The position numbers were made by a program, and so were the translations under genes. The notes below the pieces were generated by a model. The model had not been told where the DNA came from and ran no database searches. It was given only the letters and a program-made list of their open reading frames with translations. Shown one piece after another: positions 2,126 through 22,923 of a stretch of 32,000 nt of DNA; within the stretch, counting starts at the first letter, position 1, and each line of letters starts with the position of its first letter. This stretch comes from an uncultured Chloroflexia bacterium (GTDB lineage Bacteria; Chloroflexota; Ktedonobacteria; Ktedonobacterales; JADMIN01), in contig CAVRAI010000003.1 in assembly GCA_963718915.1 (NCBI GenBank), positions 390,001 to 422,000 of the forward strand, given 5' to 3'.

Positions 2126-3343
2126 TTATACGCCACTGACATGGAAGAGAACGCCAAGCGCATAGGTGATGACCGCCTCGATGGCGCCGACCACCGTCAT
2201 TTCCGTGCCGCTGACCAGCCACGAGCGCCCCGTGATGATCGTCTTGGCCGCGCCGACGGCGAAGTGCGCCATCAGGCTGATGACCGCCGCCCAGATGACG
2301 GCGGCGATACCACCGAAAAAGAAGAACGGGATGATCGGGATAAACGCGCCGAGGCCAGTGGAGACCATTGCCGAGAGCGCCGAGACCAGCGGATTTGGGA
2401 ACGCCTGCTGGTTCAGGCCCAGTTCTTCGTGGGCAAGCGCGTTCAGGAACTGTTCCGGTTGTTTGCTCAGGCGGTCGGCCAGCGTCTCCGATTCTTCCTC
2501 ACTGAAGCCCTTGAGCTGGTAGAAGAGCGCCAGCTCCTCTTTCTCTTCCTCAGGGTTCTCCTCGATCTCACGGCGTTCGCGGTCAATCTCCGCCTGATAG
2601 ATTTCACGCTCGCTCTTGGTCGCCAGATATGCTCCCGATCCCATCGAGAGCGCGCTGGCCAGCATCCCCGCCAGCCCGGCAATCAGCACCGCCTGGTTGT
2701 TGCCAGCGGTCGCGCCCGCCACGCCGCTGACAATACCGAAGACAGCGCCCAGGCCGTCGTTCGCGCCATAGATCGCGTCGCCGATCCAGCCACCACCGCG
2801 CTTGTGCCAGTGCTCGCGCCGCAGCATGACATCGAGCAAATTCTGCGGGCCTTCTGGCGCGATCATATCGCGGATGACGCGCCCGTGCGCCTCCTCCTCG
2901 CGCCGCACCTCGCGCAACATCTGGGCGGCCTCGGCGTCGCTCACCGAGCGGGCGTGCGCCTCGTAGCGGGCGATATCCACGTCTTCCGCCGCCTCCATCC
3001 TCCGGAGCGCCGCGTCGGAGCCAATGCCACGATTGATCCAGCGTTGCAGCCGGTCGCGCCAGGTGAATGTCAACGGCGGTGGGGCGGCTCCCAGCTCGGT
3101 GAGCTTGCCTTCCCAGCGTGCGGCGTGGCGCTCCTCGGCCTGGGCCAGCCGTTCGAGGATGCCGCGCTTGGTGGCGTCGGACTCGCGCCCGGCCAGGTCA
3201 CGATACATGCGCGCGCCTTCCACCTCGCGCCGCCAGTTCTGTTGCAGCGCGGCGATCAGTTGGGCGTGTGCGCCATTGGCGTCGGTGATCGGCGTATCCG
3301 CGCTGGTTGTTGGGGATGGTGATTGCTCTTCTCTATCGCTCAT
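2126..3343 (-). CDS. mbfA: Erythrin (ferritin-like)-VIT1/CCC1 fusion iron transporter (MbfA-like)
   Basis: The N-terminal half has rubrerythrin/ferritin-like helices (EGARMYRDLA...AEERHAARW ... EEEAHGRVIRDM). The C-terminal half has the VIT1 signature (GANDGLGAVFGIVSGVAG) and several TM helices. Confidence 0.75.
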   Translation of the reverse strand: MSDREEQSPSPTTSADTPITDANGAHAQLIAALQQNWRREVEGARMYRDLAGRESDATKRGILERLAQAEERHAARWEGKLTELGAAPPPLTFTWRDRLQRWINRGIGSDAALRRMEAAEDVDIARYEAHARSVSDAEAAQMLREVRREEEAHGRVIRDMIAPEGPQNLLDVMLRREHWHKRGGGWIGDAIYGANDGLGAVFGIVSGVAGATAGNNQAVLIAGLAGMLASALSMGSGAYLATKSEREIYQAEIDRERREIEENPEEEKEELALFYQLKGFSEEESETLADRLSKQPEQFLNALAHEELGLNQQAFPNPLVSALSAMVSTGLGAFIPIIPFFFFGGIAAVIWAAVISLMAHFAVGAAKTIITGRSWLVSGTEMTVVGAIEAVITYALGVLFHVSGV

Positions 3344-3515
3344 GGGAGTCTCATTCTCTGCAAGGGCAGGCGTACCGGTCGTCTGGCGGCGCGCTATCAG
3401 AACACGACGCTGTCGCGCTGCGTTGTATTGGTTGATTATAGCGGAGATTGGCGAGACGCCGCTTTGCCAGTATCGCGTAGATGTGCCGGCCGTTCGGCGT
3501 GATTCTGGGCGGCAT

Positions 3516-3524
3516 GGCGCTCTA
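3516..3524. repeat. Left copy of the 9-bp direct repeat GGCGCTCTA flanking the low-GC methyltransferase island
   Basis: It is identical to the 9-mer at 5857-5865. It sits 29 bp outside the 3' end of the MTase ORF, where GC content changes. Confidence 0.5.
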
Positions 3525-3552
3525 AAGCAGGAGGTCCAAGTCTCTTGTGAGG

Positions 3553-5757
3553 TTAGTTTTCTGGGCTTTCCCCATACCTCTTAAGGTCATCCGTCGAAAG
3601 CGCATCGGATGGTACCAGAAGATAGTGCCTCTCAGCAACTATTTCCAACTGGTCGTCGTGCATCTCAAACGCTTTCAAGGCGATAACGTCATGCTGCATG
3701 AATTGCACTGCGATGGCGCGAGCGATGAGGTTGGGATAACGTTCTCTACACAAAGCGAGATCTTGTTCTATCTGTGAACGTCCCAGCCTGTCTCTACCGC
3801 CCTTTGCCTGGACAGGAAACACATAGTGTGTGCCGCGCTTGTCGACGCCAACATATATCTCATCGGTCTCTACCTGCCCAATATTTGGCACGGTGGTGCG
3901 TAGATGATTTTGCAGGGAGTAACAGGTCACCCCTGTGAACGTATCAACCAATCGGTTATACCGAACCTTTACTAATAATCCCTGTTCATCTGTCTGGGCA
4001 TACATTTTTACAATGCCAGGGGTAGCATCTGGGATTTTTATTTGGGCCATACCTCGGGTTGGCGCCAGGTCAACCGTATCAGTCAGGACGAAGCGATACT
4101 GTGAACGCCCAATGGAGCGGATAATCCACTCTTTACCTTCTGGTGCGGTAGGCAGAATGCGCTCAGGCAATGGTTGTCGGAAGCGAAAACTATAGGGAAT
4201 GTCGCCCAGGTTGAGCGGCGTAGTTATGCCAAGCTGCCTGGCGGCGCTGGCTAACTCTTCTCGCTTGAAATCCACTTCCAGGCCGCCTGGCTGATAGTGG
4301 GCGAAAAAGATGGTTTCCATGATCTGCTGGTAACGGTTAGCAGTGAGATGTACGTCATGAGAGTCGGTCATAATAGGATTCCCTTCAGGTAACATTTGAG
4401 AGCCAAGTGGAAGAAAAGCATACCGCCGAGCCAGCTCTTCGGCGTCGGGAGCAAAGCGGAAAAGCACTACCTCTTCATTTAACTGCGCCTTGGTTGCGGT
4501 AGCCAGGCGAGTGCGAAACAGGTCTGTTCCCAACCATTCATAACCTAGCATTGTGCCGATTTCACTGAGTAGTTGTCCTGTCCGTATCATGACCTGAAGG
4601 TAGGATGCTTGATCTCCTACCACATACGCCAGGTAAGCCCCTGGACGGAGAATGGCTCGAAGCTGGGAAAGGTGGCGCGCCATGCCTCCGAAATAATGGC
4701 GTGTCACGGCTGGATATAGGCGCTCGAACCCTGATGTCTTGCCACGCCGTACACGCTCGCTTTCAATGGCATCAGCGATACTTTGGATTTCTTGATGAGC
4801 AGCGACGTCCCAGTCATCGTCATCACCTTTGTAGACATTACGAGTATTGGAACGAAGCAAGTTCTGCTTGAGCGCCCGCAGGTCGGCCTTCGACTGTATG
4901 AAGCCGAGCAACACGGACTCCAATCGAGTCGTTCTCGTATAGTCTTTCTCATTTGGATAAGGAGGAGACGTGAAAACTACATCAACCGATGCAGATGGAA
5001 GCAGTGTCAACATCTGGCGGGAGTCGCCCTGAAAGACCCTGGATGGCGTATCAACATGGGCGCCCAGGCTGCGCAGGTCGCTTACCATGCCCTGGATATT
5101 CCCAAGCCATGGTGAAATAACCGCCGCATCTGGTCTGGGCTGTCCGACACCTACTTCTGGCCCGAAACGGAGATTACTGCTCGAAAACACAAGCGCCTTG
5201 GCAAAGGCCAATCTTTCATGCGCATAGTATCGCTCGTCTCGATGATGTTCCATGCACTCTAAGAGCACAAGCGCTTTATGGAGCGGTAGTGGGCTTATGG
5301 AGCCATCGAGGAGTAGTGCCATAAGCTCGTCTGGCAGCGTGCGAATTTCTGGATCACCGTCATATCTGCCCCCAAAAAGTGGGGCATCCTCTATGCCATC
5401 ATCCGCAAGCCTCCTGAGCGCATCAGATGCTATCAGATGTGCGTGTTCCATGAGTCCGTCAGGAGATGGCGACCAATCGACCTTGGTATGGCTGGCGAAA
5501 TAAGCTACAGGGTTCGCCTCAATACCAATGCTTGGAATGCCAAGCTTCTTACATTCAGCTAACACCGTTCCGGTACCGCAAAACGGATCGAGTACGCAGC
5601 GTGTACTGTCGATGTTCCAGCGTGTAAGATAGTCACGGACAAGGTGTGGAGGAAATGACAGGACAAAGCGATACCACTCGTGGATGCTTCGATCCTCGGG
5701 GTAAACTCTATTGATCTCGCTGTTCACATTGCGTTTGCGTGCTGTTGTGTAGCTCAT
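3553..5757 (-). CDS. DNA methyltransferase (N6A/N4C amino-MTase) fused to a C-terminal PD-(D/E)xK-like putative endonuclease domain
   Basis: 734-aa ORF in a markedly AT-richer segment. SAM motif I is VLDPFCGTGTVLAEC (about 5563-5590). Catalytic motif IV is VVFTSPPYPNE (SPPY at 4957-4968), about 210 aa after motif I, which is an alpha-like order. The C-terminal ~270 aa contain ETDEIYVGVD-x12-VQAKGG (about 3795-3875), which resembles a nuclease core. Confidence 0.8.
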   Translation of the reverse strand: MSYTTARKRNVNSEINRVYPEDRSIHEWYRFVLSFPPHLVRDYLTRWNIDSTRCVLDPFCGTGTVLAECKKLGIPSIGIEANPVAYFASHTKVDWSPSPDGLMEHAHLIASDALRRLADDGIEDAPLFGGRYDGDPEIRTLPDELMALLLDGSISPLPLHKALVLLECMEHHRDERYYAHERLAFAKALVFSSSNLRFGPEVGVGQPRPDAAVISPWLGNIQGMVSDLRSLGAHVDTPSRVFQGDSRQMLTLLPSASVDVVFTSPPYPNEKDYTRTTRLESVLLGFIQSKADLRALKQNLLRSNTRNVYKGDDDDWDVAAHQEIQSIADAIESERVRRGKTSGFERLYPAVTRHYFGGMARHLSQLRAILRPGAYLAYVVGDQASYLQVMIRTGQLLSEIGTMLGYEWLGTDLFRTRLATATKAQLNEEVVLFRFAPDAEELARRYAFLPLGSQMLPEGNPIMTDSHDVHLTANRYQQIMETIFFAHYQPGGLEVDFKREELASAARQLGITTPLNLGDIPYSFRFRQPLPERILPTAPEGKEWIIRSIGRSQYRFVLTDTVDLAPTRGMAQIKIPDATPGIVKMYAQTDEQGLLVKVRYNRLVDTFTGVTCYSLQNHLRTTVPNIGQVETDEIYVGVDKRGTHYVFPVQAKGGRDRLGRSQIEQDLALCRERYPNLIARAIAVQFMQHDVIALKAFEMHDDQLEIVAERHYLLVPSDALSTDDLKRYGESPEN

Positions 5758-5820
5758 CGAGAATGCGCCTTGATGACGATTAACCTCATGTGCATGGCAG
5801 TAGACGGCAACAGCAAACCC

Positions 5821-5856
5821 ATAATAGCAGTATAACAGCTTTTATGAAGGTATGAA
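5821..5856 (-). promoter_or_regulatory. Candidate sigma70-type promoters for the MTase gene
   Basis: Two overlapping candidates on the minus strand: TTCATA(5851-5856)-16 nt-TATACT(5829-5834) and TTCATA(5843-5848)-16 nt-TATTAT(5821-5826). They lie 65-100 nt upstream of the ATG at 5757. Confidence 0.3.
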
Positions 5857-5865
5857 GGCGCTCTA
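5857..5865. repeat. Right copy of the 9-bp direct repeat GGCGCTCTA
   Basis: It is identical to 3516-3524. Its last three bases (CTA) are the reverse complement of the TAG stop of the L,D-transpeptidase gene. Confidence 0.5.
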
Positions 5866-6645
5866 CGCGACGATGATGACCCGCGCGCCGATGCCCACCC
5901 AGCTATAGAGCGCAGCGGCGGCGGGCGTGGGCATGTTGACGCAGCCATGGCTGCCCGTCTCGCGCGTGCCGTCGGCGTCGGTGTGGGGATATTCGGTGCC
6001 GGGGCCGAAGGCGTGTCGCCAGGGCGCATCGTGGATGTAGTAGCCGATGTCGCGGAAGTACATCGCGTAGTTGATATGCTCAGGGGAGTAGTAGAAGGGC
6101 GACCCTGGCGGCCAGAGCGAGTAGAAGGTGACGTTCGTTTCCTTGCGCTGGACAGCATATGCGCCGCGCGGTGTCTGCAGTTGTGGCATACCCGTCGTCA
6201 CTGGGCTGGCGAGCATCAGACGTTGATCCTGGTAGGCCCAGAGCCACTGCTGCGAGAGGCTGACCAGAATCACCTGGCCGCCATAGTGCGGGACGCCTGC
6301 GCTGGGCTGAGGCACGGTGACCATGACGCTGGTGCAGTGGCAGTCAGGAGAGGTGGTCGCGGTGGGCGTCGCGGGCAGATGCACCAGAGGCTTGCCAGCG
6401 GACGGCTGTGAGTTATGCGCCGCGCCAAAGACAATACCCGCCACTGTGCCGCCGCCCAAACCAACGACCGCGACGCAGGCGGCCAGCGCCAGAAAAATCA
6501 GCGCGCGCAGCCCTCTTCCCCGCGTGCGCTGGCGTGTGATCTCGTCCACCGTCGAATCAGCCATTCCCTGCACTCCTCCATCACCACGATTCCGGCGCAC
6601 TCCGTCTTCGCCGATTGCCTCGCTCTCTATAGACGAATCAAACAC
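5863..6645 (-). CDS. L,D-transpeptidase (YkuD domain), membrane-anchored
   Basis: N-terminal TM helix (LRALIFLALAACVAVVGLGGG) and a C-terminal YkuD pattern ending in the catalytic motif SHGCVNMP. The start codon is uncertain because an internal Met is available. Confidence 0.75.
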   Translation of the reverse strand: MFDSSIESEAIGEDGVRRNRGDGGVQGMADSTVDEITRQRTRGRGLRALIFLALAACVAVVGLGGGTVAGIVFGAAHNSQPSAGKPLVHLPATPTATTSPDCHCTSVMVTVPQPSAGVPHYGGQVILVSLSQQWLWAYQDQRLMLASPVTTGMPQLQTPRGAYAVQRKETNVTFYSLWPPGSPFYYSPEHINYAMYFRDIGYYIHDAPWRHAFGPGTEYPHTDADGTRETGSHGCVNMPTPAAAALYSWVGIGARVIIVA

Positions 6646-6778
6646 TGAAAGTTAATTGCCAATCGCCAGAATTGTGCCACCATGCCTACGACTCACATGT
6701 CTCCGAATGCCGCATCAGCCGTTCAGCAGTGCGCTCTTTGCCCTACGCAATACGACGCTATTCAGGCGAGGGTATCTG

Positions 6779-6787
6779 TGTTAGAAT
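6779..6787 (+). promoter_or_regulatory. Extended -10 promoter element (TGtTAGAAT)
   Basis: TGTTAGAAT lies 76 nt upstream of the ATG at 6863. No convincing -35 was found. Confidence 0.3.
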
Positions 6788-6862
6788 GCTGCCCAGCTAT
6801 TGAGCCAGCCAGCCAGTGTCAACGATGTACATGTTCGTTTCATCATCCGGCCAGGGGACGCT

Positions 6863-7876
6863 ATGCATAGGGAAATCCGGCTGACACCCATCCTGTTGCT
6901 GGTGCTTGGCGTCACCACAGCGCTCGTGGTGGGGCTGATCCTGTTGCTCTGGACGCTCTTGCCGCCGAATTTGCAATCGGGTCTGCCGTTCGCCATCTCG
7001 ACGGTGGTGGTGGTCAATACCGCACTCTTGCGCGTGATCCCGGTGGTGGGGAAGCGCCTCATCGGTGATGATTCCGCCTCCGCCGCGCTTGCCAAAGCCC
7101 AGGCGCAAGCGCAGCCCCCGCATGTCTCGTATCAGTTGCGCCATGTCGTGGACGTCGCCGCGCCCGTCGCCGCACGCGCCTGCCATCGCTGTGGCCGAGT
7201 CGCACAGCACGGCGATGCGTTCTGCCGTCAGTGTGGCAATGCGCTCACTGCGCCGCCAACTCCCCCGCCCGCCGCCATGCCCCACCCAATCGCTCAACCG
7301 CTGGCTCAACCTGTCGCTCAACCTGTCGCTCAACCTGTCGCTCAACCTGTCGTCCAACCCGCCGTCCAACCCGCCGCCCAACCGCTGGCTCGCCCGCCTG
7401 CCTATTCCGCGCCGTTCGCCGCGGCGTATGCTGGGCCGATTACCTCGGTTGGTGGAACAGTAGCTGTCACGCCGACCGTCCATCGCTTCATGAGCAAACG
7501 CGCGCTCCGCTATCTGCTCTTCATCGGCATCGCCTGCAATATCGTCGCCGTCCTGCTCTACGCGCTCGTCTCGATTATTGTCGCCTCCTGCTCGCCAGAC
7601 GCCGATATTAACGCCTGCTCTTCCTCCCAGACGGGCGTTGTGACCATTCTCATCGTCCTGACGCTGATCGTCTGGGTGCCGGGCTTCGTCCTGGTCTTGC
7701 TGGCTGATGTCTTCGCGCTGATCCGCACCGCGCTGGTTCGTCGCTGGGGCTGGTTCACCGCGATTCTGCTGACATACCTCTTCTGCTGGAATGTAGCGAT
7801 GTTATTCTACGTCTTCATCGGGCCAGATGAGCCGCCCGGCCGCCCGGCCCCAGCCGCGGGCTATCCGCCACACTGA
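6863..7876 (+). CDS. Zinc-ribbon membrane protein with an (A-Q-P-V)n repeat linker
   Basis: Two N-terminal TM helices, a CxxC-x11-CxxC zinc ribbon (CHRCGRVAQHGDAFCRQCG), a tetrapeptide repeat linker, and a C-terminal 4-TM bundle. The track start at 6800 is a TTG. The ATG at 6863 is preferred because it follows AGGGGA and lies downstream of the putative -10. Confidence 0.6.
   Translation: MHREIRLTPILLLVLGVTTALVVGLILLLWTLLPPNLQSGLPFAISTVVVVNTALLRVIPVVGKRLIGDDSASAALAKAQAQAQPPHVSYQLRHVVDVAAPVAARACHRCGRVAQHGDAFCRQCGNALTAPPTPPPAAMPHPIAQPLAQPVAQPVAQPVAQPVVQPAVQPAAQPLARPPAYSAPFAAAYAGPITSVGGTVAVTPTVHRFMSKRALRYLLFIGIACNIVAVLLYALVSIIVASCSPDADINACSSSQTGVVTILIVLTLIVWVPGFVLVLLADVFALIRTALVRRWGWFTAILLTYLFCWNVAMLFYVFIGPDEPPGRPAPAAGYPPH
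7289..7396 (+). repeat. 12-bp in-frame tandem repeat, ~9 units (consensus GTCGCTCAACCT), encoding (xAQP)n
   Basis: Read directly: atcgctcaaccg ctggctcaacct gtcgctcaacct x3 gtcgtccaaccc gccgtccaaccc gccgcccaaccg ctggctcgcccg. Confidence 0.9.
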
Positions 7877-7926
7877 GGTGTTGGTGGATGTGGCTGGCGC
7901 ATCTCTGGCGCATCTCTGGCGCATCT

Positions 7927-8913: not shown

Positions 8914-10023
8914 ATGAAAATTGGCACCTGCGCCGCGAAGCCCGGCAAGATGACCTTTGGCTCGCTGGAGGTCATGACTCACTTCGATGGCACGCCCGAG
9001 CGCCTGCCGGTGGTGATCGCCGCTGGCCGTCATGATGGCCCCTGCTTCTGGATCACCGGCAACATTCACGGCGACGAGTATGTGGGCCTGCTGGCGGTGC
9101 AGGGCGGCGTGACACGCGCGCTGGCCGACCGGCTGGGCGACCTGCGTGGCACAGTGGTGGCGCTGCCAACGCTCAATCCCGCGGGCCTACGGGTGGGCCG
9201 CCGCGAAGCCTACTACGACCCAGAGACCGACCCCAACCGCACCTTTCCCGACGCCAACCCCTATGCCGACCCCGAGCTGTCTGAGGGCGAGGATGACGAC
9301 ACGCCGACGCCCTACGAGGCGGCGAGCGCCGTCTATTTCGAGCTGATGCGCCAGACGGCCAACTACCATATCGACCTGCACGCGATGTCGATCCAGGCCA
9401 CGCCTTTCACGCTGATAGACCACCTCCTTTACCACGGCGAGGACGACCGCCCGCGTATGGAGAAGCTGGCGCTCCAGATGCATAGCCTGGCGCGCGCTTT
9501 TGGCATCCCGGTCATCAACGAGTTTCCCAGCCGCAAATACATCAAGAACCGCCTGCACCGCTCGACCGGCGGCGCGGCGGGGCATGTGCTGGGCATCCCC
9601 TCGATCACGCCGGAGTTGGGGATGGGCGGAGATGTCGAGCCGAAGGCCTTGCGGGCAGGTATCGCGGGTATCCATAATGCGCTGGTCTGGGCGGAGATGC
9701 TGCCCGACGACCCTATCGCCATCGACTGGATTCCCCAGCCTGATCTGGGCTATCCGGTGCGGCGCGAACCACATCCACGCCCGGCGGTGACGGGCATCGC
9801 GGCGAAGCTGGTGACGCCGGGCGACGTTGTGCGCGCGGGCGATCCGGTCGCCGAACTGCGCGATATCTGGGGGCGGTCGCTCGGCGACGATGGCTATCTG
9901 CGCACCGAGAAAGATGGCTGGGTGCTCAACCTGCGTCCCGGCGTCGGCGTCTATCCCAACCGCGCCATCATGGATCTCGCCGTGCGTGACGACGATCCAC
10001 TGGCGCTGCCCTGGCCGCGGTAG
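8914..10023 (+). CDS. Succinylglutamate desuccinylase/aspartoacylase-family (M14-like) zinc hydrolase
   Basis: AstE/AspA-family N-terminal motif (PCFWITGNIHGDEYVG), followed by LNP.G......R......D.NR.FP and a later H(D)LH motif (YHIDLHAM). Confidence 0.7.
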   Translation: MKIGTCAAKPGKMTFGSLEVMTHFDGTPERLPVVIAAGRHDGPCFWITGNIHGDEYVGLLAVQGGVTRALADRLGDLRGTVVALPTLNPAGLRVGRREAYYDPETDPNRTFPDANPYADPELSEGEDDDTPTPYEAASAVYFELMRQTANYHIDLHAMSIQATPFTLIDHLLYHGEDDRPRMEKLALQMHSLARAFGIPVINEFPSRKYIKNRLHRSTGGAAGHVLGIPSITPELGMGGDVEPKALRAGIAGIHNALVWAEMLPDDPIAIDWIPQPDLGYPVRREPHPRPAVTGIAAKLVTPGDVVRAGDPVAELRDIWGRSLGDDGYLRTEKDGWVLNLRPGVGVYPNRAIMDLAVRDDDPLALPWPR

Positions 10024-10038
10024 ACCAGTTCTCTCCTC

Positions 10039-10054
10039 CGTTTCATGTGAAACG
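10039..10054. promoter_or_regulatory. Perfect 16-bp palindrome CGTTTCATGTGAAACG (possible operator)
   Basis: 7-bp arms with a 2-nt centre, which is too tight for an RNA hairpin. It lies between the hydrolase stop (10023) and the MFS promoter. Confidence 0.3.
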
Positions 10055-10154
10055 AATAACTCTGGACGTATATCATGGCTCGGCTGCCATCTGTCGGTGG
10101 TCGGGCAACCTCTTGCACGCTCCCGGCCTATCGCGAAACACTTTATAGGTAACG

Positions 10155-10183
10155 TTGACGTGAACGGCAAGGTATGATACAGT
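10155..10183 (+). promoter_or_regulatory. Candidate sigma70-type promoter of the MFS transporter gene
   Basis: TTGACG(10155-10160)-17 nt-TACAGT(10178-10183). A 7-bp stem hairpin (10194-10216) lies in the predicted leader. Confidence 0.4.
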
Positions 10184-10237
10184 CTGTGGCAACCGATACT
10201 GAAAGCAGGAGTATCGAATGCGGCCATAGCGATCAGC

Positions 10238-12073
10238 ATGGCCCAAAGACACAGGAGGAGATGTGGCGCCGTGTCGGCGAATCCTTCCACGCAGCATCCA
10301 CAACCTGCTTTGCCTCGTCTGGCAGAGCGCCGCGGAAAACGGACTCAACGCCCCGTTGGGCCAAACTACAAATGGATCGCGCTGACCAACACGACGCTTG
10401 GCGCACTGATGGCTACCATCGACGCCAGCATCGTGCTCATTGCCCTGCCAGCGATCTTCAAAGGGATTGGCATCAATCCGCTGGCTCCCGGTGAATCCAG
10501 CTACTTCCTCTGGCTGCTGCTCGGCTATATGGTCGTCACGGCGACGTTGCTTGTCACCTTCGGGCGCATCTCCGACATGTTCGGGCGCGTCCGGCTCTAT
10601 AATCTCGGCTTTGCCATTTTCACCGTTGGCAGCATCCTGCTGGCGTTCACACCGGGTACAGGCAACACTGGCGCCCTCGAACTCATTATCTTCAGACTGA
10701 TTCAAGGCGTCGGTTCGGGATTCCTGCTCTCCAACAGCGCGGCCATTCTGACGGACGCTTTCCCCGCGAATCAGCGCGGGCGGGCGCTGGGCATCAATCA
10801 GATTGCCGCGATTGCTGGCTCATTCATCGGTCTGATTCTTGGCGGTGTTCTGGCCGCGATTGACTGGCGTCTCGTCTTCCTGGTGAGCGTGCCGGTTGGC
10901 CTCGCCGGAACGATCTGGGCCTATACGATGCTGCGCGAGACGGCGACGATTCGCGGGAAACAGAAAATTGACTGGCTTGGCAACATCACTTTCGCGGTCG
11001 GTCTGACGGTGCTGCTGCTCAGCATCACCTATGGTATCGAGCCGTACGGTGATTCGCCGATGGGCTGGGGCAATCCCCTGGTGATTGGTGGCATCGTGCT
11101 CGGCGTTCTTATGCTAGCCACTTTTATCTGGATCGAACTGCATGTCGCCGAAGATCCGATGTTCCGGCTGGATCTCTTCAAGATCCGCATGTTCGCTGCG
11201 GGCAACATCAGTGGTTTTCTGTCGGCGTTGAGCCGCGGAGGCCTGCAATTCATGCTCGTCATCTGGTTGCAAGGTATCTGGCTACCACTCCATGGCTACA
11301 GCTTTGCGGAGACACCGCTCTGGGCAGGCATCTATATGACGCCGCTGCTCCTCGGCTTCATCGTTATGGGGCCGATCAGCGGCTATCTCTCGGATCGCTT
11401 CGGCGCCCGCGTCTTCTCGACGACGGGTCTGCTCGTACAGGCCGCTGGCTTTCTTGGGCTGACATTCTTACCAGCGAACTTCAATTACCCTGTCTTCGCC
11501 ATCTTACTCTTCATTCTTGGATGTGGCTCTGGCCTCTTCGCGTCACCAAACACCAGTTCCATCATGAGCAGCGTCCCGCCGGAGACACGCGGTGTGGCGT
11601 CTGGCATGCGGGCAACGTTCCAGAATGGCGCGTCGCTCGTGAGTATTGGCTTCTTCTTTAGCATCGTCACGGTTGGCCTCGTCGCGGCGCTCCCTTCGAC
11701 ATTCTTCAACGGGCTGACGAAATATGGTGTGCCAGCCAGCACCGCGTCGCAGATCGCGCACCTGCCGCCAACTGCCGCGCTCTTCGGCGCCTTCCTGGGA
11801 TACAACCCTATCGCACAGTTGTTGCCGCCTCAGGTGTTGAGCCACATCTCACCAGCCAACCAGGCAACGCTGCTTGGCAAGACATTCTTCCCCAATCTGA
11901 TTTCAGCGCCCTTCATGGATGGGCTGCATGCCGTCTTCTACATCTCCGCCACAATGTGCCTTGTTGGCGCGGGTGTCTCACTCCTGCGCGGCAAAGTGGT
12001 GCAGCACTATGTGGCGGATGTGGCGGATGCGGCGGATGCGCCTGTCGCGTCGGAGGCGACACCGGCCTCCTGA
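10238..12073 (+). CDS. MFS transporter, DHA2 (EmrB/QacA-like, 14-TMS) family
   Basis: 611-aa polytopic ORF with DHA2-type N-terminal motifs (LGALMATIDASIVLIALPAI; GRISDMFGRVRLY; LIQGVGSGFL). The start is uncertain: ATG 10238 or in-frame GTG 10271, the latter downstream of AGGAGG. Confidence 0.8.
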   Translation: MAQRHRRRCGAVSANPSTQHPQPALPRLAERRGKRTQRPVGPNYKWIALTNTTLGALMATIDASIVLIALPAIFKGIGINPLAPGESSYFLWLLLGYMVVTATLLVTFGRISDMFGRVRLYNLGFAIFTVGSILLAFTPGTGNTGALELIIFRLIQGVGSGFLLSNSAAILTDAFPANQRGRALGINQIAAIAGSFIGLILGGVLAAIDWRLVFLVSVPVGLAGTIWAYTMLRETATIRGKQKIDWLGNITFAVGLTVLLLSITYGIEPYGDSPMGWGNPLVIGGIVLGVLMLATFIWIELHVAEDPMFRLDLFKIRMFAAGNISGFLSALSRGGLQFMLVIWLQGIWLPLHGYSFAETPLWAGIYMTPLLLGFIVMGPISGYLSDRFGARVFSTTGLLVQAAGFLGLTFLPANFNYPVFAILLFILGCGSGLFASPNTSSIMSSVPPETRGVASGMRATFQNGASLVSIGFFFSIVTVGLVAALPSTFFNGLTKYGVPASTASQIAHLPPTAALFGAFLGYNPIAQLLPPQVLSHISPANQATLLGKTFFPNLISAPFMDGLHAVFYISATMCLVGAGVSLLRGKVVQHYVADVADAADAPVASEATPAS

Positions 12074-13512: not shown

Positions 13513-13759
13513 CTCCTTTTGTCCTCAAGAGAATACGACACCTCCGTGCTTCCGCAACGGTGCAGCGGAGGGTAACCCTGCCAGACCGCACGAGCTATGC
13601 CAGCGGAAAGCCCCACGAGCATTCTGGAGGCGCCGCCGTCAGCGTCTCGCTGCCCATGAACAACCCTCCCAACCTGCTGTGGCGTGATGAATTTCCGCTT
13701 GCGTCCGTGGTCGCCGTATGAGCGTAAGTGGCGTTTGATACACAACTCCAGCAAACGAG

Positions 13760-13768
13760 TGGTATATT
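13760..13768 (+). promoter_or_regulatory. Extended -10 element (TGgTATATT) upstream of the basic-protein/macrodomain pair
   Basis: TGGTATATT lies 47 nt upstream of the ATG at 13815. The direct repeat TATCGCAGT occurs twice in the leader. Confidence 0.35.
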
Positions 13769-13814
13769 TATCGCAGTGTGATTCTTTTGTCTGCTATCGC
13801 AGTAGGAGGCGCAT

Positions 13815-14039
13815 ATGGCACGCTTCAAAGTATTTCCGCGCTACCGCCGACCCTCGCTCAAGACCGCGCTGGGCATCACCAAAGCGAAACGGCGCTTTCG
13901 GAAAGCAACGGGCTATTATGCCATCACGCGTCCCTTCCGCGCGCCTGGCAATTTCAAGCGGCGGATGCTGCGCCGGGCGGGCTATTATAGCGGCCCTATG
14001 AAGTTCCTGCGCTTCATGCGGCGTTCGTTGCGTGGCTGA
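13815..14039 (+). CDS. 74-aa extremely basic protein with no acidic residues; unknown function
   Basis: Strong SD (AGGAGG, 5 nt before the ATG). Composition is 17 Arg + 7 Lys, no Asp/Glu, and Phe/Tyr-rich. There is an internal duplication: KRRFRKATGYYA / KRRMLRRAGYYS. Confidence 0.6.
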   Translation: MARFKVFPRYRRPSLKTALGITKAKRRFRKATGYYAITRPFRAPGNFKRRMLRRAGYYSGPMKFLRFMRRSLRG

Positions 14040-14049
14040 GTGGCGCGGT

Positions 14050-14547
14050 ATGGTCAACCTCGTAACCGGCAATCTCTTCGACTCAGAAGCGCAGACGCTG
14101 GTGAACGCCGTGAACTGCGCGGGCGTGATGGGCAAGGGCATCGCGCTGGAGTTCAGACGGCGGTATCCGTCGATGTTCGCGGATTACGTCGCGCGCTGCA
14201 AGAATGGCCGCGTGCGCCTGGGCGAGCCGTATCTCTATCGTGGTGAATCGCTCCCCTGGATTCTCAACTTCCCAACCAAGAATCACTGGCGATCCGCCTC
14301 GAAGCTGGAGGATATCGTCGCCGGGCTGGCATACCTGGAGGCGCACTACCGCGCGTGGGGTATCACATCGCTGGCGGTCCCGGCGCTGGGCTGTGGCGCG
14401 GGCCAGTTCGCATGGGAGGTCGTCGGCCCGGTACTTCGTGACGGGCTTGGCAGACTGGCGATTCCGGTCAAGCTGTACCTGCCAACGGGGGCAGAGCAGA
14501 ACCCGGGATCGAATGAGCGCTATTGCATATCCACACGAGTCAACTGA
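14050..14547 (+). CDS. Stand-alone macrodomain protein, DarG/TARG1-like (ADP-ribose hydrolase family)
   Basis: GNLFDSEAQTLVNAVNCAGVMGKGIALEFRRRYP ... ILNFPTKNHWRSASKLEDI ... LAVPALGCGAGQ closely matches my recollection of the DarG N-terminal macrodomain, including the FPTK(x)HW lysine context. The start is either ATG 14050 or GTG 14032, the latter overlapping the upstream stop. Confidence 0.8.
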   Translation: MVNLVTGNLFDSEAQTLVNAVNCAGVMGKGIALEFRRRYPSMFADYVARCKNGRVRLGEPYLYRGESLPWILNFPTKNHWRSASKLEDIVAGLAYLEAHYRAWGITSLAVPALGCGAGQFAWEVVGPVLRDGLGRLAIPVKLYLPTGAEQNPGSNERYCISTRVN

Positions 14548-15628
14548 GTTTGCCGACCTTGCCTACTCGCTCTGTGAACCAGATCGTATTATGCGGCCCA
14601 CTCGTGATGGCCCAGGGATAACCTTGCGACGTTGGCACAGGGAATTCGGTGACCACGCCAGTGGTGGTGATACGTCCAATCTGGTTTGCCTTTCCTTCGG
14701 TGAACCAGAAAGCTCCATCGGCTCCGGCGATGATCTCATGAGGATCTCCCTGAGTCGGCAGTGGGAATTCGGTGATAATGCCACTGATGGTGATACGTCC
14801 AATTTTGTTCCCGACCTCTTCCGTAAACCAGAGATTCCCGTCCGGGCCTGCTGTGATCGCAATGGGGCCACTCTGAGAGGTAGGGATGGGGAACTCAGTG
14901 ATCGTGCCCTGAGGTGTGATGCGTCCAATTTTGTTCCCGCCGCTGAGTTCGTTTCCCGTGAACGTGCCACTTTCCGTGAACCACAGCGCTCCATCGGGGC
15001 ATTTGGTGATACCAATCGGGTTGCCCCTGGGCGTTGGGATCGGGAATTCGGTGATGGCGCCATTGGTGGTGATGCGTCCGATTTTGTTTGCGCTCGCCTC
15101 CGTGAACCAGAGAGCGTTATCAGGCCCAGCAGCAATCCCAACAGGGTCTGCGTTGGGGGATGGAATGGGAAACTCGGTGATCACACCCTGTGGCGTGATG
15201 CGCCCGATCTTACTGGCGTCGCTCACTGCGGTGAACCAGAGGTTGCCATCAGGCCCAGCCACGATATCAGTGACGAAGGGGTTGGCGTGTGGAGGGGATG
15301 GTATGGAAAACTCCGTGAGGATACCCTCTGGGGTGATACGCCCGATCTTGTAGGGTTTGGACTCCGTGAACCAGAGGTTTCCGTCGGACCCGGTGGTAAT
15401 GCCATAGGAATCGCTGCGAGGTGTCGGAATCTCAAATTCCTGGATGGCGCCGCGCAGTGTCGGGAGTGATTGCTTTGCGGACGGTGTCAATCCTGGATGC
15501 AGGCTTGTCGAGGACGAGCCTGCGCATCCTGCCAGCAACCCGAAGAACAACAGCACACTCAGGCCCAGGGATCGGCGAAAGGAGGAACCCCAGTATTTCA
15601 CAGGGTGATCCAGGCTATGCGCCAGCAT
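14540..15628 (-). CDS. Vgb (streptogramin/virginiamycin B lyase)-like beta-propeller lipoprotein
   Basis: Signal peptide with lipobox (LLAGC). About seven repeats of G(I/P)..G.DGNLWFTE...NKIGRIT..G.ITEFPIPT match the Vgb-family propeller repeat. SD GGGAGG lies upstream of the ATG. Confidence 0.75.
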   Translation of the reverse strand: MLAHSLDHPVKYWGSSFRRSLGLSVLLFFGLLAGCAGSSSTSLHPGLTPSAKQSLPTLRGAIQEFEIPTPRSDSYGITTGSDGNLWFTESKPYKIGRITPEGILTEFSIPSPPHANPFVTDIVAGPDGNLWFTAVSDASKIGRITPQGVITEFPIPSPNADPVGIAAGPDNALWFTEASANKIGRITTNGAITEFPIPTPRGNPIGITKCPDGALWFTESGTFTGNELSGGNKIGRITPQGTITEFPIPTSQSGPIAITAGPDGNLWFTEEVGNKIGRITISGIITEFPLPTQGDPHEIIAGADGAFWFTEGKANQIGRITTTGVVTEFPVPTSQGYPWAITSGPHNTIWFTERVGKVGKLS

Positions 15629-15851
15629 ATACTACCTCCCACCCCTGAGGGGCAACACAGCCTGATCGGATACAAACCGGATCACGGGTCATCGGTGTGT
15701 CATGAGGCAACCGAGAGAAAATCCGCATCTGATTGTAAACGTTTCTTCCAAATATGTAGTAGGCAGATACCCTGGGCTAGCGCTATCCATTTGGCGCACT
15801 GCCGACTATGCGCCACAGAGATCCTGGCAACATGGCAACCGTCCTTGATAT

Positions 15852-15971
15852 TGGAGGATATCGTCGTTGGGCTGTGGTGCGGGCCAACTCGCATGGGAGG
15901 TCGTCGGCCCGGTACTTCAAGAGTCGCTCGGCAGGCTAGAAATCCCGGTCGAACTTTACGCGCCAGTGTGA
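15852..15971 (+). pseudogene. Decayed remnant of a second macrodomain gene (3' end only)
   Basis: It aligns by hand to 14306-14320 plus 14388-14483 of the intact macrodomain gene and shares a perfect 30-nt core (14408-14437 = 15889-15918). A ~65-nt deletion between GGGCTG repeats breaks the frame. The tail reads GCGAGQLAWEVVGPVLQESLGRLEIPVELYAPV*. Confidence 0.7.
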
Positions 15972-16127
15972 AGGTGTCCACCAAATTCTGTGGCGCGCCA
16001 TTTCATCGTCCCTCTGCGTAGCCCCGGTGTATAATGCCGACTGTGATTGGGCGTTGCCCTCAGGCTGCGACATGCATTGTTGTCGCGGGACCAGGTTCCG
16101 ACCAGCCATGAGCCGGAGGAGGCCACG

Positions 16128-17525
16128 ATGGTATCCAAATCCAGCCTCATACCCTCCGATTTGGACGCTCACATCCGCGAGCAGATGACCCGCTGGACCG
16201 TCCCCGGCGTCGTCGTTGGTGTGCTACGTGATGGCGAGCGCGAGACGCGCGCCTATGGCGTCACCAGCCTTGAAACCGGCTATCCCGTCCGCCCCGATAC
16301 CCTCTTCCCAATCGGCTCTATCGGCAAGGTCTACACTGCCGCCCTTGTCATGGCGCTTGTAGACGAAGGCATGTTCGACCTCGATGCCCCAGTCGCCACC
16401 TACCTGCCCGACCTCCGGCTCGCCGACGAGCGCACCCGCGATACCATCACCCTCCGTCAGCTGCTGAGCCACCAGAGCGGCCTCTACGGCGACTACTACG
16501 ACGACTTCGGCATGGGCGATGGCGCCCTCGCACGCTGCGTCGCCAGCTATTCCACCCTCCGCCAGCTTACGGCGCCTGGCGAGCTGTGGGCCTACTGTAG
16601 TAGCGGCTTCATGCTCGCCGGTCGTGTCACTGAAGTTGTCACGGGCCAGCCCTTCGAGGTCGCTATGCGCGAGCGCGTCTTCGCGCCGCTGGGCCTCGAC
16701 CGATCCTTCTTCTTCGCCCACGAGGCTATCGTCTATCCTACCGCCGTCGGCCACGTACTCAAGACCCCTGGCGGTGATGAACACGAGGTCCGTCGCGCGT
16801 ACCTGCTTTCGCGCAACGTCGCCCCCGCTGGCGGCATCATCTCGGACGCCGACGACCTGCTCGCCTTCGCCGCATTCTCCATGGGCGATGGCGCGTGGAA
16901 TGGTCGGCGCGTGCTCAGCCTGGCCTCGCTGGAGGCGATGCGGACACCCCAGGTGCGCGCCGCCAACTACCACGCCGCTGGCTTCGCCGAGTGGGGCGGC
17001 CTCGGCTGGGCCATCCGCTTCATCGATGGCGTGAAGGTTATCGAGCACGGCGGTTCACTCAACGGCTTCCAGGTCAAGCTCAAGTTCGTCCCGGCGCGTC
17101 ACTTTGCCATCGCCACCCTCACCAACAGTGGTCGTGGCAGCGTCCTGGGCGACCGTGTGGCCGAGTGGGCGCTCGACCGTGTCCTCGGTCTGCGCGCGCC
17201 CAGCCCTGTGCTTATCTCGCTCTCCGACGAGGCCCTCGCGCGCTTCGCTGGCCGCTATCGCCTGGCGGTTGATGATGAGGAGGTGGTTGCCATCACCGTC
17301 GCGGATGGCGGGCTGCGCTGCGTCATGAAAGAGTCCGATCCTGTCACCCAGAGCGAGCAGACCTATCCACCGGACCTGCTTCGGCCCACCGCTGAGCGTG
17401 AGTTCGTGGTCGTGACCCAGGACGAGAACGAAGGCTCGCGGATCGACTTTATCGAGCGGGGCGACGGCTCTATTCGCTTCCTACGTATGGGTGGCCGCCT
17501 CTACGAGCCGGTCGCCGATGCCTGA
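16128..17525 (+). CDS. Serine hydrolase, beta-lactamase (class C)/PBP-like family
   Basis: SxxK motif (GSIGKVYTAA), a YxS/N-like motif (YCSSGF), and a C-terminal extra domain. The ATG at 16128 follows GGAGGAGG. The track start at 16047 is unlikely. Confidence 0.8.
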   Translation: MVSKSSLIPSDLDAHIREQMTRWTVPGVVVGVLRDGERETRAYGVTSLETGYPVRPDTLFPIGSIGKVYTAALVMALVDEGMFDLDAPVATYLPDLRLADERTRDTITLRQLLSHQSGLYGDYYDDFGMGDGALARCVASYSTLRQLTAPGELWAYCSSGFMLAGRVTEVVTGQPFEVAMRERVFAPLGLDRSFFFAHEAIVYPTAVGHVLKTPGGDEHEVRRAYLLSRNVAPAGGIISDADDLLAFAAFSMGDGAWNGRRVLSLASLEAMRTPQVRAANYHAAGFAEWGGLGWAIRFIDGVKVIEHGGSLNGFQVKLKFVPARHFAIATLTNSGRGSVLGDRVAEWALDRVLGLRAPSPVLISLSDEALARFAGRYRLAVDDEEVVAITVADGGLRCVMKESDPVTQSEQTYPPDLLRPTAEREFVVVTQDENEGSRIDFIERGDGSIRFLRMGGRLYEPVADA

Positions 17526-19449: not shown

Positions 19450-19831
19450 TTCCGCAGACGGTTCGCGGTCGCTTCGTGGTAACCCATAGTCCGCGTGCTC
19501 TGTTCGGAGAGATGTTCCTGGGGACGGAGTCTGCCAGGGGTGGCGTCGTTTCGCGGCATCGCCACAAAGCGGTATCGCCTGGATGGTAGAGCGGCAAACA
19601 TTCATCATTCTCACCTGCGTGGGGAGGTCATACAGCATGCGAGACGTCAGATCCGATACGCCAGCCCATCGCCTGACATCGTCCTATGTCGGCGTTCGGC
19701 ACACGGCCCCGCGACAGACCAGCCAGACCTGGAGCTATCAATCGCCTACCGCTCCATCTACTTCATCGGTCTCATCCGCTACGGCGATGCCAACGAGCGC
19801 GACAAGCTCTGGTCGCTGGCGCACACCTGGG

Positions 19832-20791
19832 ATGGCAATCGCCAACCCGGCGCCGCTCACATCGCTGCCGGTGAGTCCATTTGCCGCGCCCGGCCTCGAT
19901 GCGCGGCCAGACCCGCAGGTATGGCTCATTTCGACCGTTACCGCAGCGGGTGGCATGCGTCCGCTCGAAGGCGCCGGTCGCGTTGGCGCGATTCCCGTGG
20001 GGCGCCCCTATGGCTTTCTGCGGGCGATCCGGCCCGTGATGCCGCCGGGCGCGCTGGGCAACAGCTTCGATGCCGCCGCCGAGAGTGGCGGGCTGGCGAC
20101 GCGCGCGCGCCGTGGCCGCTCCATCCATAAGGGGCTGGGATCGGCTGAAGCGTGCCCGCCAGGAAATCTACCCGCGCCACGCCCCATGCCACAGATCATC
20201 TCGGCGGTGGAGGTCGAGACCGATGTTGGCATTTTTCGGGTCGAGCGGCCCAACGACGTGCTGACGCACAGCGATATTGCCTGGTCACTGGCGCATCTGG
20301 AGGCGGGCGAGCCTGATAGCCTCGTGCCGCTGCCTCGCCGCCAGCTTGCCCTCCTGCTGACGCTGCTGCCGACGCCCGAAGACCCAGCGCACCCTGAGCT
20401 TGACCCCACCTGGGGCTGGGCGCATCGCTTGCGCGGCCCATGGGAGCGCGGTCCGCTTCATCCGCGCGGGCGGCTGGGTCGGCTAATTGCCATCGACCCT
20501 GATCCCGGCGGCAAAGGGATGCATCGCGCCTGCTTCGAGCTGCTTGGCGCCGAGGATGTCGTCTGGGCGCTTGGTGTCCCCTGCTTCCGCACCGGTAGCG
20601 TCTATGAGCTGACGCCGCTGGGCAAGAGCAGCCGCTGGCTCTCCTGGCCGATCAGCAAAGCGCGCAGCCGTGCCGGTAGCCCGGAGCGCCCCGCCTGGGA
20701 GATCGCCCGCGTCGTCTACCGTGTCGGGTCGCCGCGCTGGCCGCTCGCCGGAGTCGTCGAGCCGCTCGGGCCGATGGGCATCGCTGGCTAA
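19832..20791 (+). CDS. Hypothetical protein (no recognisable domain)
   Basis: The long ORF 19583..20791 shows good GC3 codon bias only from about the ATG at 19832 onward. The upstream part looks non-coding. Confidence 0.5.
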   Translation: MAIANPAPLTSLPVSPFAAPGLDARPDPQVWLISTVTAAGGMRPLEGAGRVGAIPVGRPYGFLRAIRPVMPPGALGNSFDAAAESGGLATRARRGRSIHKGLGSAEACPPGNLPAPRPMPQIISAVEVETDVGIFRVERPNDVLTHSDIAWSLAHLEAGEPDSLVPLPRRQLALLLTLLPTPEDPAHPELDPTWGWAHRLRGPWERGPLHPRGRLGRLIAIDPDPGGKGMHRACFELLGAEDVVWALGVPCFRTGSVYELTPLGKSSRWLSWPISKARSRAGSPERPAWEIARVVYRVGSPRWPLAGVVEPLGPMGIAG

Positions 20792-20856
20792 TGCCAGGTT
20801 GAAGCAGGTTATTGCCCTTGGGGCGCGCCGGAGCCTGCCAGCGAATTTCCCTACCC

Positions 20857-20893
20857 ATTCGCCGTAGCGTTCACGCTACGGCTTGCTCACCTC
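20857..20893. repeat. REP-like palindromic intergenic repeat, family B, copy 2
   Basis: ATTCGCCGTAGCGTTCACGCTACGGCTTGCTCACCTC has the same 8-bp stem as copy 1 (8778-8810), with loop TTCA instead of TTGA. Confidence 0.7.
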
Positions 20894-21007
20894 ACCGCAA
20901 TGCCCGTCTCCGTCGCACATGCTAAAACCACATTATGCTAATGAACCAGTCGCCCGCTGGAGTATTCCCAGGGAGGACGGCTGGCGTGTGGTATGTTGGC
21001 GCTGGGA

Positions 21008-22288: not shown

Positions 22289-22923
22289 GGGAGCGCCATC
22301 GTCGGTGTCGTGTCCGCTGCGGTGTCCGCTGCGAAGGTGGCGACGGCAGCCGACTCATACGGCGGGAATGTCGGGGCGGCATACACCTCGGCTGGCGCTG
22401 GGGCGTCGGGCGCGCTCTCCGTCTCTGCGGGCTGATCGCTGGCGGGCGTCTCGTCTGTGGTGTCCGTCAGAGGTGAGACGGCCGCTACGGGTGGATCGTA
22501 GACCGGAATGGTCGGTATCTCGTAGTCATCGTCAGGTGTCGTCGTCGCGCCTGCATCACCCGGCGCGCTGAACGATGTATCGCCGCTTATCGGCGCGTTG
22601 TCCGCTGCGTCGTCAGGTGTGGCTGGCGCTTCCGCTACAGGTTCAGGGGCGGCGTCGCTGTCAGCATCAACCGTGGAAGCAGGCGCGTCGTTAGCAGTGT
22701 CATCAGCAGCGTCGTCGGCGGCGTCGCTGGCTGTTCCGCCGGCCTCAGGCGCCGGGGTCCAGGCATCGGCAATCGGTTCAGTCGCCAAAGATGGCTCGCT
22801 GTCCGTCGTTGCCGTCTCTTCACTCGTCTGAGCAGCCACGTCATCTGGTGTGGCCTGGTCGCTCGCGGGCGTGGTAGCATCGGTGGTAGCATCATCAGGC
22901 GGTATGTGGTTCTGATCGTCCAT
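22171..22923 (-). CDS. Acidic low-complexity protein; probably the 5' part of the same gene as 21008..22288
   Basis: Good SD (AAGGAG 8 nt before the ATG at 22923). The composition matches the downstream ORF. The last ~40 codons turn basic, which suggests out-of-frame reading, and the ORF overlaps the next one by 118 nt. Confidence 0.5.
   Translation of the reverse strand: MDDQNHIPPDDATTDATTPASDQATPDDVAAQTSEETATTDSEPSLATEPIADAWTPAPEAGGTASDAADDAADDTANDAPASTVDADSDAAPEPVAEAPATPDDAADNAPISGDTSFSAPGDAGATTTPDDDYEIPTIPVYDPPVAAVSPLTDTTDETPASDQPAETESAPDAPAPAEVYAAPTFPPYESAAVATFAADTAADTTPTMALPWTAPPTAERTPRRRTPLPPRRLIRQMLHPRKARWQTPH

Follow-up and report, generated by a model that had tools for sequence, protein, structure and literature searches.

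Gene content and composition of the locus

The DNA analysed here, called the window throughout, is a stretch of 32,000 nucleotides (nt) of contig CAVRAI010000003.1 (positions 390,001 to 422,000) from an uncultured Chloroflexia bacterium of the order Ktedonobacterales. It contains a 2332-bp segment (window positions 3525-5856) bounded by two copies of a 9-bp direct repeat. The segment, referred to below as the cassette, carries one open reading frame (ORF), a restriction-modification (RM) gene, together with a promoter-like stretch. The ORF occupies positions 3553-5757 of the minus strand and encodes 734 amino acids (aa). Directly upstream in gene orientation lies ldt, the gene for an L,D-transpeptidase (5863-6645, minus strand; Pfam YkuD, E=2.8e-24). 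The downstream neighbour encodes a ferritin-like/VIT1 fusion protein of MbfA-like architecture (2126-3343, minus strand; Pfam VIT1, E=1.9e-67, and Rubrerythrin). It is called mbfA-like because its product scores 21.6 bits against NCBIfam MbfA, far under the cutoff. The two flanking genes mark the host as a member of the Ktedonobacterales. The native spacer upstream of the mbfA-like gene (3344-3515, minus strand) has host-like G+C content (GC) and a conserved TATAAT at 3435-3440, which is intact after the insertion.

The cassette stands out in composition. Its GC is 51.5%, against 64.6% in the left flank and 62.5% in the right, and in sliding windows of 100-300 nt the values are 44-55% within the segment and 60-70% outside it, with the shifts falling no more than about 50 nt from the repeat copies. 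GC at third codon positions (GC3) is 52% in the ORF and 70-82% in ten neighbouring genes. No other 2.3 kb stretch of the window deviates as much in tetranucleotide usage (L1 distance 0.44 for the segment, against a median of 0.21). The next most deviant or lower-GC (56-59%) stretches lie at about 13750-16300 and 20500-22800, and also at 10000-11500; the ORFs at 14204-15469 and 19583-20791 have no Pfam match.

The repeat GGCGCTCTA occurs twice in the window and is absent from the opposite strand. Its left copy (3516-3524; TAGAGCGCC in gene orientation) adjoins the native spacer, and its right copy (5857-5865) includes the ldt stop codon (CTA at 5863-5865 of the plus strand, TAG on the minus strand). 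The cassette itself begins with a 5′ leader (5758-5856, minus strand) in which a promoter-like site starts at the very first base: a -35 element TTCATA (5856-5851), 16 nt, and an extended -10 element TGTTATACT ending at 5829. At the other end a 28-nt tail (3525-3552, minus strand), without a terminator or hairpin and without homology to the alleles of relatives that lack the cassette, separates the ORF stop codon from the repeat.

No integrase, transposase or recombinase gene was found in the cassette or among the 15 other ORFs scanned (428-20791), and the neighbouring genes are metabolic or transport genes. Terminal inverted repeats pairing the ends at 3525 and 5856 were looked for and not found, nor were subterminal hairpins or palindromes at the cassette ends or an attC-like structure or palindrome in the 28 nt 3′ of the ORF. 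A preliminary description of this stretch had pictured an AT-rich island holding a methyltransferase fusion gene, its promoter-like region and nothing else, with the 9-mer just outside each end, the ldt stop codon in the right copy, and no integrase, transposase or terminal inverted repeat. These points agree with the data above; the GC of 45-50% that it gave was slightly too low. The fusion was also borne out, its second partner being a restriction endonuclease.

The fused methyltransferase-endonuclease and its family

Both enzyme functions lie in one uninterrupted reading frame of 734 aa, and all of its parts are on the minus strand. The DNA methyltransferase domain (M) comprises aa 1-450 (4408-5757) and matches Pfam N6_N4_Mtase (PF01555, E=5.7e-10, above the cutoff) and PADLOC MTase_II (E=9e-33). 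Its motif I (DPFCGTGT, aa 57-64) precedes motif IV (SPPY, aa 264-267); the two are invariant among 62 aligned homologues, and it was exactly at these motifs that a sequence search of PDB gave matches to 2zie and CcrM. A linker (aa 451-472; 4342-4407), modelled as disordered with a predicted local distance difference test score (pLDDT) below 50, leads to the restriction endonuclease domain (R; aa 473-734; 3556-4341), which has a PD-(D/E)XK-like core. Residues 472-728 match positions 2-258 of the 260 in the PADLOC REase_II profile PDLC03404 (E=8e-112), essentially its full length. In the core, D639 is invariant, and 90% or more of the 62 aligned proteins keep Q650, A651 and K652.

AlphaFold (AF2) modelling is confident and shows two folded domains, with a pLDDT of 84 over the full length and 89.5 in the endonuclease domain. 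Foldseek searches with the endonuclease domain gave weak matches to PD-(D/E)XK nucleases (Cas4-family ACE1, NucS), too weak for inferring specificity, and those with the full-length model returned generic Rossmann methyltransferases only. Likewise, the PDB sequence search recovered the methylase motifs only and no close solved homologue of the endonuclease. The prediction is thus a DNA methyltransferase of the N4/N6 type that a disordered linker connects to a complete Type II restriction endonuclease, which formally makes the protein a Type IIC enzyme.

Thousands of matches to this protein were found, more than 100 of them full-length (700-790 aa, 55-81% identity), in Acidobacteriota, Verrucomicrobiota, Chloroflexota and others. 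Many members of the family have M and R as adjacent genes in different frames, or within one frame interrupted by a stop codon (loci L085, L086, L088, L089, L094, L096, L097, L101, L102, L104, L105, L107 and L108; L numbers denote loci and contigs from other genomes). In these split relatives the codons that end M and start R fall in the region of the linker, and the fused form makes up one subclade. Since split and fused members belong to one family, fusion or fission occurred within it. Because M and R are still separate in so many members, we infer that the single-chain enzyme arose by natural fusion of M and R genes that lay side by side in a two-gene Type II system.

The endonuclease domain also stands alone, both in related loci and on 4267-bp enterobacterial plasmids. 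A tblastn search of plasmids found separate halves only: the endonuclease on 4267-bp ColE1-type plasmids and the methyltransferase on a Leptolyngbya plasmid. One stand-alone homologue, on L130 (NZ_CP083635.1; methylase and endonuclease pair at 93-971 and 958-1773), is 54.5% identical to the endonuclease domain and annotated only as a hypothetical protein. On the mobilisable ColE1-type plasmids, which come from Klebsiella and Salmonella, the endonuclease gene lies directly downstream of a 5-methylcytosine (m5C) methyltransferase ORF and overlaps its end, so that one nuclease family is paired with two methylase classes. A literature search with the accession of the plasmid endonuclease gave no result.

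Across many hosts the GC of family members is mostly 3-14 points under that of their flanks. The distant members (at most 68% identity) occupy unrelated contexts, again mostly with lower GC than their hosts. A scan of viral contigs and a tblastn search of phages revealed no carrier of the cassette.

Empty alleles and other cargo between ldt and the mbfA-like gene

Alleles with no insert between the end of ldt and the spacer upstream of the mbfA-like gene (empty alleles) were found in L002, L003, L004, L124-L128, L129 and L135, with about 87% nucleotide identity to the window. They span at least eight related Ktedonobacterales lineages. The homology of these relatives to the window stops exactly at 5857 and restarts at 3456-3462; positions 3463-3515, which have host-like GC, align loosely with the fast-evolving spacer of the relatives. 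A search with the mbfA-like protein retrieved 73 genome loci (one genome per species), and the RM gene was absent from all of them. The empty alleles of the relatives and the deviant GC, GC3 and tetranucleotides show that the segment is foreign DNA genuinely inserted between these two genes.

Elsewhere the spacer between ldt and the mbfA-like gene is occupied by other DNA. RM homologues with 80-81% aa identity (74% at the nucleotide level, synonymous divergence (dS) saturated) follow the ldt stop codon directly in L074-L076 and L077. An imperfect repeat of the ldt 3′ end, 23-26 bp long, flanks the L074 cassette (47-72 and 2407-2429; p<0.003). We compared the 28 nt after the window ORF with this arrangement, and a decayed orphan ldt end was rejected there (9/28 identity by hand alignment). 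L074-L076 belong, together with L118-L123, to a Ktedonobacterales group of about 80% identity, which we call species B. In L118 (2252-2294 and 4898-4940), L119 and L123 of this group a 43-nt orphan ldt end lies just upstream of the mbfA-like gene, and the real and orphan ends bracket an extracytoplasmic function (ECF) sigma factor, an NAD-dependent epimerase and a 153-aa ORF. As the orphan end surrounds non-RM cargo, the repeat in the species B group predates the RM insertion.

Further cargo in the spacer includes a TetR gene paired with a major facilitator superfamily (MFS) transporter gene (L019, 7905-9797), a small SnoaL-like ORF (L001, about 9230-9860) and, just upstream of the mbfA-like gene, an IS605-type TnpB gene in L135 (1050-2345) and probably in L134. 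Given such varied, lineage-specific cargo, the spacer between ldt and the mbfA-like gene is a hypervariable hotspot.

Some features of the surroundings may be recorded here. The contigs with the closest RM homologues (L074-L076, L077, L078) come from several independent samples, are only 2.4-2.9 kb long and end within tens of bases of the cassette borders, a pattern expected if one population contains both filled and empty alleles and the assembly graph breaks where they diverge. A perfect 8-bp inverted repeat, GCGCTCTA / TAGAGCGC, is present at window positions 5858-5865 and 5906-5913, and also in L124; through it the repeat at the ldt stop pairs with Ala-Leu-Tyr codons 40 nt upstream inside ldt. 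This pairing could form a hairpin at the ldt 3′ end and might relate to the hotspot status. On the other side of ldt, the interval up to the MOSC gene (6646-7926) aligns poorly with the relatives; it contains a 358-aa ORF on the plus strand (6800-7876) with AQPV-type proline-rich repeats, a weak zinc-ribbon match and hydrophobic segments. In L124-L127 a TnpB gene takes its place between MOSC and ldt (2749-3918 in L124).

A second carrier of the cassette

A nearly identical cassette was found in L111, a single 1.5 kb contig of metagenome Ga0134126 spanning ldt and the first 573 nt of the RM gene. The RM coding sequences of the window and L111 are 97.2% identical, with dS of 0.063 (8/132 synonymous sites) and a ratio of nonsynonymous to synonymous divergence (dN/dS) of 0.29. 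For the catalytic domain of ldt the same two sequences give a dS of 0.34 (26/95). Over some 850-900 aligned nt the L111 ldt region is 83% identical to the window and 93.8% identical to the empty allele L003, the dS of the catalytic domain between L111 and L003 being 0.18. Site by site, L111 is like L003 up to the last base before the cassette (...GTAGCGCC/) and like the window from the first cassette base onwards. The leader differs between L111 and the window at 13 of 99 positions, which shows that L111 is not a chimera of window-type reads; the leader block AAAGCTG(G/T)TATACTGCTA is kept in both L111 and L074, and the related cassettes share the promoter-like site.

Since dS is 0.063 for the RM gene and 0.34 for ldt, and since the ldt of L111 matches that of the empty-site allele L003, the cassette is a recent lateral gain and not an inherited gene. 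Judged by the same values, it entered one or both lineages after L111 and L003 split, and the upstream host flank was not transferred with it. A protein search with the last 103 residues, aimed at truncated near-identical copies with a downstream junction, yielded nothing above 66%. Look-ups of seven mbfA-like relatives for a second filled allele found only empty alleles or other cargo.

Junction sequences and the origin of the 9-bp repeat

Junctions are given in gene orientation (ldt to RM to mbfA-like), a slash marking the cassette border. The window reads GTCGCG TAGAGCGCC / TTCATACC ... CCTGCTT / TAGAGCGCC ATGCCGCC CAGA..., and the upstream junction of L111 reads TCA TAGCACGCC GTAGCGCC / GTCATACA.... 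Among the empty alleles, which have (G)TAG(AG)CGCC followed by the homologous spacer, L002 carries a single copy of the motif (TCG TAGCGCC TGCTGA...) and L135 a perfect 8-bp tandem (TCG TAGCGCC GTAGCGCC TGCTGA...). The tandem is diverged in L003 and L004 (TCA TAGC(A/G)CGCC GTAGCGCC ...) and in L129 (TCA TAG TCGTATC GTAGCGCGCC ...). In L124-L128 two copies are separated by a filler (TCG TAGAGCGCC GTGGAACAGAACAAGCC GTAGCGCC ...), and those of L124 lie 17 nt apart. The exact 9-mer is found once in L124, at the ldt stop.

The motif TAG(AG)CGCC at the ldt stop codon borders the cassette in the window as well as in L111. The two joins to ...CGCC/ lie 9 nt apart, after copy 1 in the window and after copy 2 in L111. 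The same cassette end on the same motif in two diverged lineages argues for a motif-directed event rather than random illegitimate insertion. We consider it probable that a horizontally acquired, self-contained RM cassette, consisting of a promoter, one gene and a 28-nt tail, was inserted at this motif.

The steps of such an event may be outlined as follows. The cassette would have been inserted immediately after the TAG(AG)CGCC motif that holds the ldt stop codon, upstream of the intact promoter of the mbfA-like gene. The flanking 9-bp repeat would have been made or renewed by this insertion, either through fill-in of a staggered cut or through a single crossover between a motif copy on a circular or donor form and the chromosomal copy, with the step catalysed by enzymes of the host or supplied in trans. 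Once resident, the gene would methylate host DNA and cleave unmethylated incoming DNA, and post-segregational toxicity could favour its retention.

Whether the insertion itself made the repeat is a separate question, on which we lean towards a duplication associated with the insertion, by staggered cut or by crossover, and the repeat is likely to be a true target-site duplication. Two features of the window junctions point that way. Both window copies carry the extra AG (9/9 identical), and the second copy of every empty allele is GTAGCGCC, without AG. Moreover, the downstream copy is followed by ATGCCGCC-CAGA, which lines up with the second copy and CCCAGA in L003 and L004; by this alignment the window holds three motif copies, as expected if copy 1 had been newly duplicated.

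Several observations weigh against an insertion-made repeat at a directed site. When two boundary zones of about 100 nt are compared, 2.6% of shuffles give an exact shared 9-mer or longer, and the same kind of 9-mer match is seen in 8% of equally spaced zone pairs of this GC-rich window; with boundary zones of 250 nt the p value for a shared repeat is about 0.58. The 9-mer alone is thus within chance, and it gains weight only when related genomes are compared. In that comparison a second tandem or nearby motif copy is already present in the empty alleles L135 (as GTAGCGCC GTAGCGCC), L003, L004, L129 and L124. The L111 cassette lies after the second motif copy and not between the copies, and the evidence from L111 comes from one 1.5 kb metagenome contig. 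Finally, RM family members of at most 68% identity, in other contexts, have no significant flanking repeats.

With two motif copies in most empty alleles, the duplication may predate the insertion. The cassette could then have landed between two existing TAG..CGCC copies by illegitimate recombination, or have replaced a short spacer, and the repeat would be a property of the site. The second copies in L124-L128 and the other alleles just named fit this well, as does the 9-mer's lack of significance on its own, and in the species B group the orphan ldt 3′ end flanks different cargo and its truncated version flanks the RM gene in L074. Against it stand the AG shared by the window copies, unlike the second copies of empty alleles, the three motif copies that the window holds by the above alignment, and the position of the L111 cassette after copy 2. 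We regard a pre-existing repeat as possible but doubtful. The two origins predict different downstream junctions in alleles of the L111 type: CCTGCTT/(G)TAG(AG)CGCC/TGCTGACGCC if the insertion made the duplication, and a cassette tail joined directly to TGCTGACGCC if the repeat was there before.

The preliminary description had taken the 9-mer for a target-site duplication or the trace of site-specific insertion between ldt and the mbfA-like gene. Its insertion stands, supported by the empty alleles and by the end of homology at 5857. The single TAGCGCC in L002, the single 9-mer in L124 and the same TAG(AG)CGCC motif beside the L111 cassette speak for its view of the repeat; the second copy already present in most empty alleles and the distant members without significant flanking repeats speak against it.

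A broader reading takes the 8-9 bp motif at the ldt stop as the core of a cassette slot served by a recombinase in trans, in Ktedonobacterales and possibly more widely; this we think unlikely. If it were true, unrelated cargo (the RM gene, the ECF/epimerase/153-aa cluster, TetR plus MFS, the SnoaL-like ORF) would be inserted, excised and exchanged there, excision would leave tandem footprints such as GTAGCGCC GTAGCGCC, and the locus would resemble an integron as a place of gene exchange, but with neither attC nor a linked integrase. For the tandem motif of L003 and L004 we considered a footprint of excision confined to empty sites and rejected it in this simple form, as the filled L111 has the same tandem upstream of its cassette.

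It is also conceivable that the restriction enzyme drove its own integration: it would have cut the chromosome, still unmethylated, in or close to the motif (AGCGCC fits RGCGCY), and end-joining would have captured the RM DNA. Repeated use of the site would then need no recombinase, and the motif holds a GC-rich quasi-palindrome. An SPPY motif IV suggests cytosine-N4 methylation of a C-containing site, which counts in the same direction. In Xanthomonas, part of a predicted recognition sequence lies beside an 8-bp duplication (Furuta et al., PMC2853133). However, the host part of the window has 116 RGCGCY sites and the cassette 7, so self-cutting would not explain the site specificity, and the duplicated stretch includes TAG, which does not fit a simple cut-and-ligate geometry; we judge self-integration very improbable.

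Several palindromes are strongly depleted in the host part of the window (observed/expected GCCGGC 2/18.7, CGATCG 1/14.7, CGGCCG 5/17.7), as are CTAG, GGCC and GATC, which suggests long exposure to other restriction systems. This avoidance cannot be tied to the cassette enzyme, and we rejected it as a trace of that enzyme.

That the cassette was ancestral between ldt and the mbfA-like gene and was lost from relatives by deletion between the flanking repeats would account for the RM homologues directly after ldt in L074-L077 and for the single motif copy of L002, which is what direct-repeat recombination would leave, but it is hardly credible and was rejected on the dS values: that of the cassette is fivefold under that of ldt and also under the 0.18 between L111 and L003, at least eight independent lineage losses would be needed, the GC3 of 52% is unameliorated, and the window and L074 differ in junction structure, with saturated dS between their RM genes.

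Significance and comparison with known systems

The cassette offers a clean natural example, from a poorly studied soil phylum, of an RM gene that passed between diverged lineages as a unit of one gene and nothing else, landing on the same short motif each time without a recombinase of its own. The set of alleles (single motif, tandem motif, 17-nt filler and at least four cargos) is useful for studying how RM genes travel when they have no mobility genes, an issue that has stood since the surveys of the Kobayashi laboratory. The split (M+R) and fused (M-R) forms document in nature the gene-fusion route to Type IIC enzymes, earlier shown by engineering only. Current understanding is not overturned by the findings at this locus.

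Integron gene cassettes resemble the present one in being single-ORF units at a recurrent site whose cargo varies between genomes; here, however, there is no attC-like imperfect palindrome and no integron integrase nearby, and the gene has its own promoter. A classical insertion sequence (IS) or transposon would have a transposase gene and inverted repeats pairing its ends; here no inverted repeat pairs the ends, and the only ORF is the RM gene. Integrase-mediated elements differ in that no recombinase lies in or beside the cassette within the ORFs scanned. From IS200/IS605 elements mobilised in trans it is set apart by the absence of subterminal palindromes and the presence of a flanking repeat; the TnpB elements in the neighbourhood of the relatives (L124-L127, L135) occupy positions other than the cassette site.

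As an enzyme, the predicted protein invites comparison with two kinds of single-chain systems. Type IIG/IIC enzymes of the MmeI type have an N-terminal nuclease, a gamma-class methylase and a shared recognition domain. PMC2700111 and PMC3384240 describe the MmeI, Eco57I and TspGWI kind as large bifunctional enzymes that cleave away from their recognition site. The cassette protein would share with them the production of a bifunctional restriction-methylation protein from one gene, but it has a complete, independent Type II-like endonuclease family at its C-terminus, attached through a flexible linker. The engineered RM.Eco29kI is a Type IIC single-chain enzyme made by fusing adjacent Type II genes (PMC3039593). 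In that enzyme, as in the prediction for the cassette protein, the two activities of a two-gene Type II system are joined in one polypeptide, and stand-alone homologues of each half exist. The cassette protein differs in being a natural fusion, in the order M then R, and in its methylase of the N6_N4 (SPPY) type, Eco29kI having R then M and an m5C methylase.

The closest parallels in gene mobility are the RM units found in the Kobayashi-laboratory surveys to be inserted without mobility genes and flanked by target duplications (Nobusato et al. 2000; Furuta, Abe & Kobayashi 2010, PMC2853133). The likeness extends to the presence of RM genes only, the lack of integrase and transposase, the foreign composition, and flanking direct repeats whose sequence sits at the empty locus of a relative. 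The 2010 survey defined such inserts as carrying R and M homologues in less than 20 kb with no other mobile element, and the 2332-bp insert with its one R-M gene falls within this definition. The survey also set target duplications at more than 30 bp, and by this measure the window (9 bp) and L074 (23-26 bp) lie outside the class, the 43-bp repeat of L118 flanking non-RM cargo. The motif here is, besides, often already duplicated in empty alleles, and two lineages use the same one. Transposon-like RM units of Xanthomonas oryzae and Neisseria gonorrhoeae have terminal inverted repeats and 8-bp target duplications (Fig. 11 of PMC2853133). A short direct repeat (8-9 bp) identical to the sequence of the empty locus is common to them and the window cassette, which, unlike them, lacks terminal inverted repeats at 3525 and 5856 and a transposase-like gene. 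The window cassette thus sits between the long-duplication and the transposon-like forms of that survey, and is an ordinary but unusually well documented case of an RM system as a mobile gene, of a kind already known.

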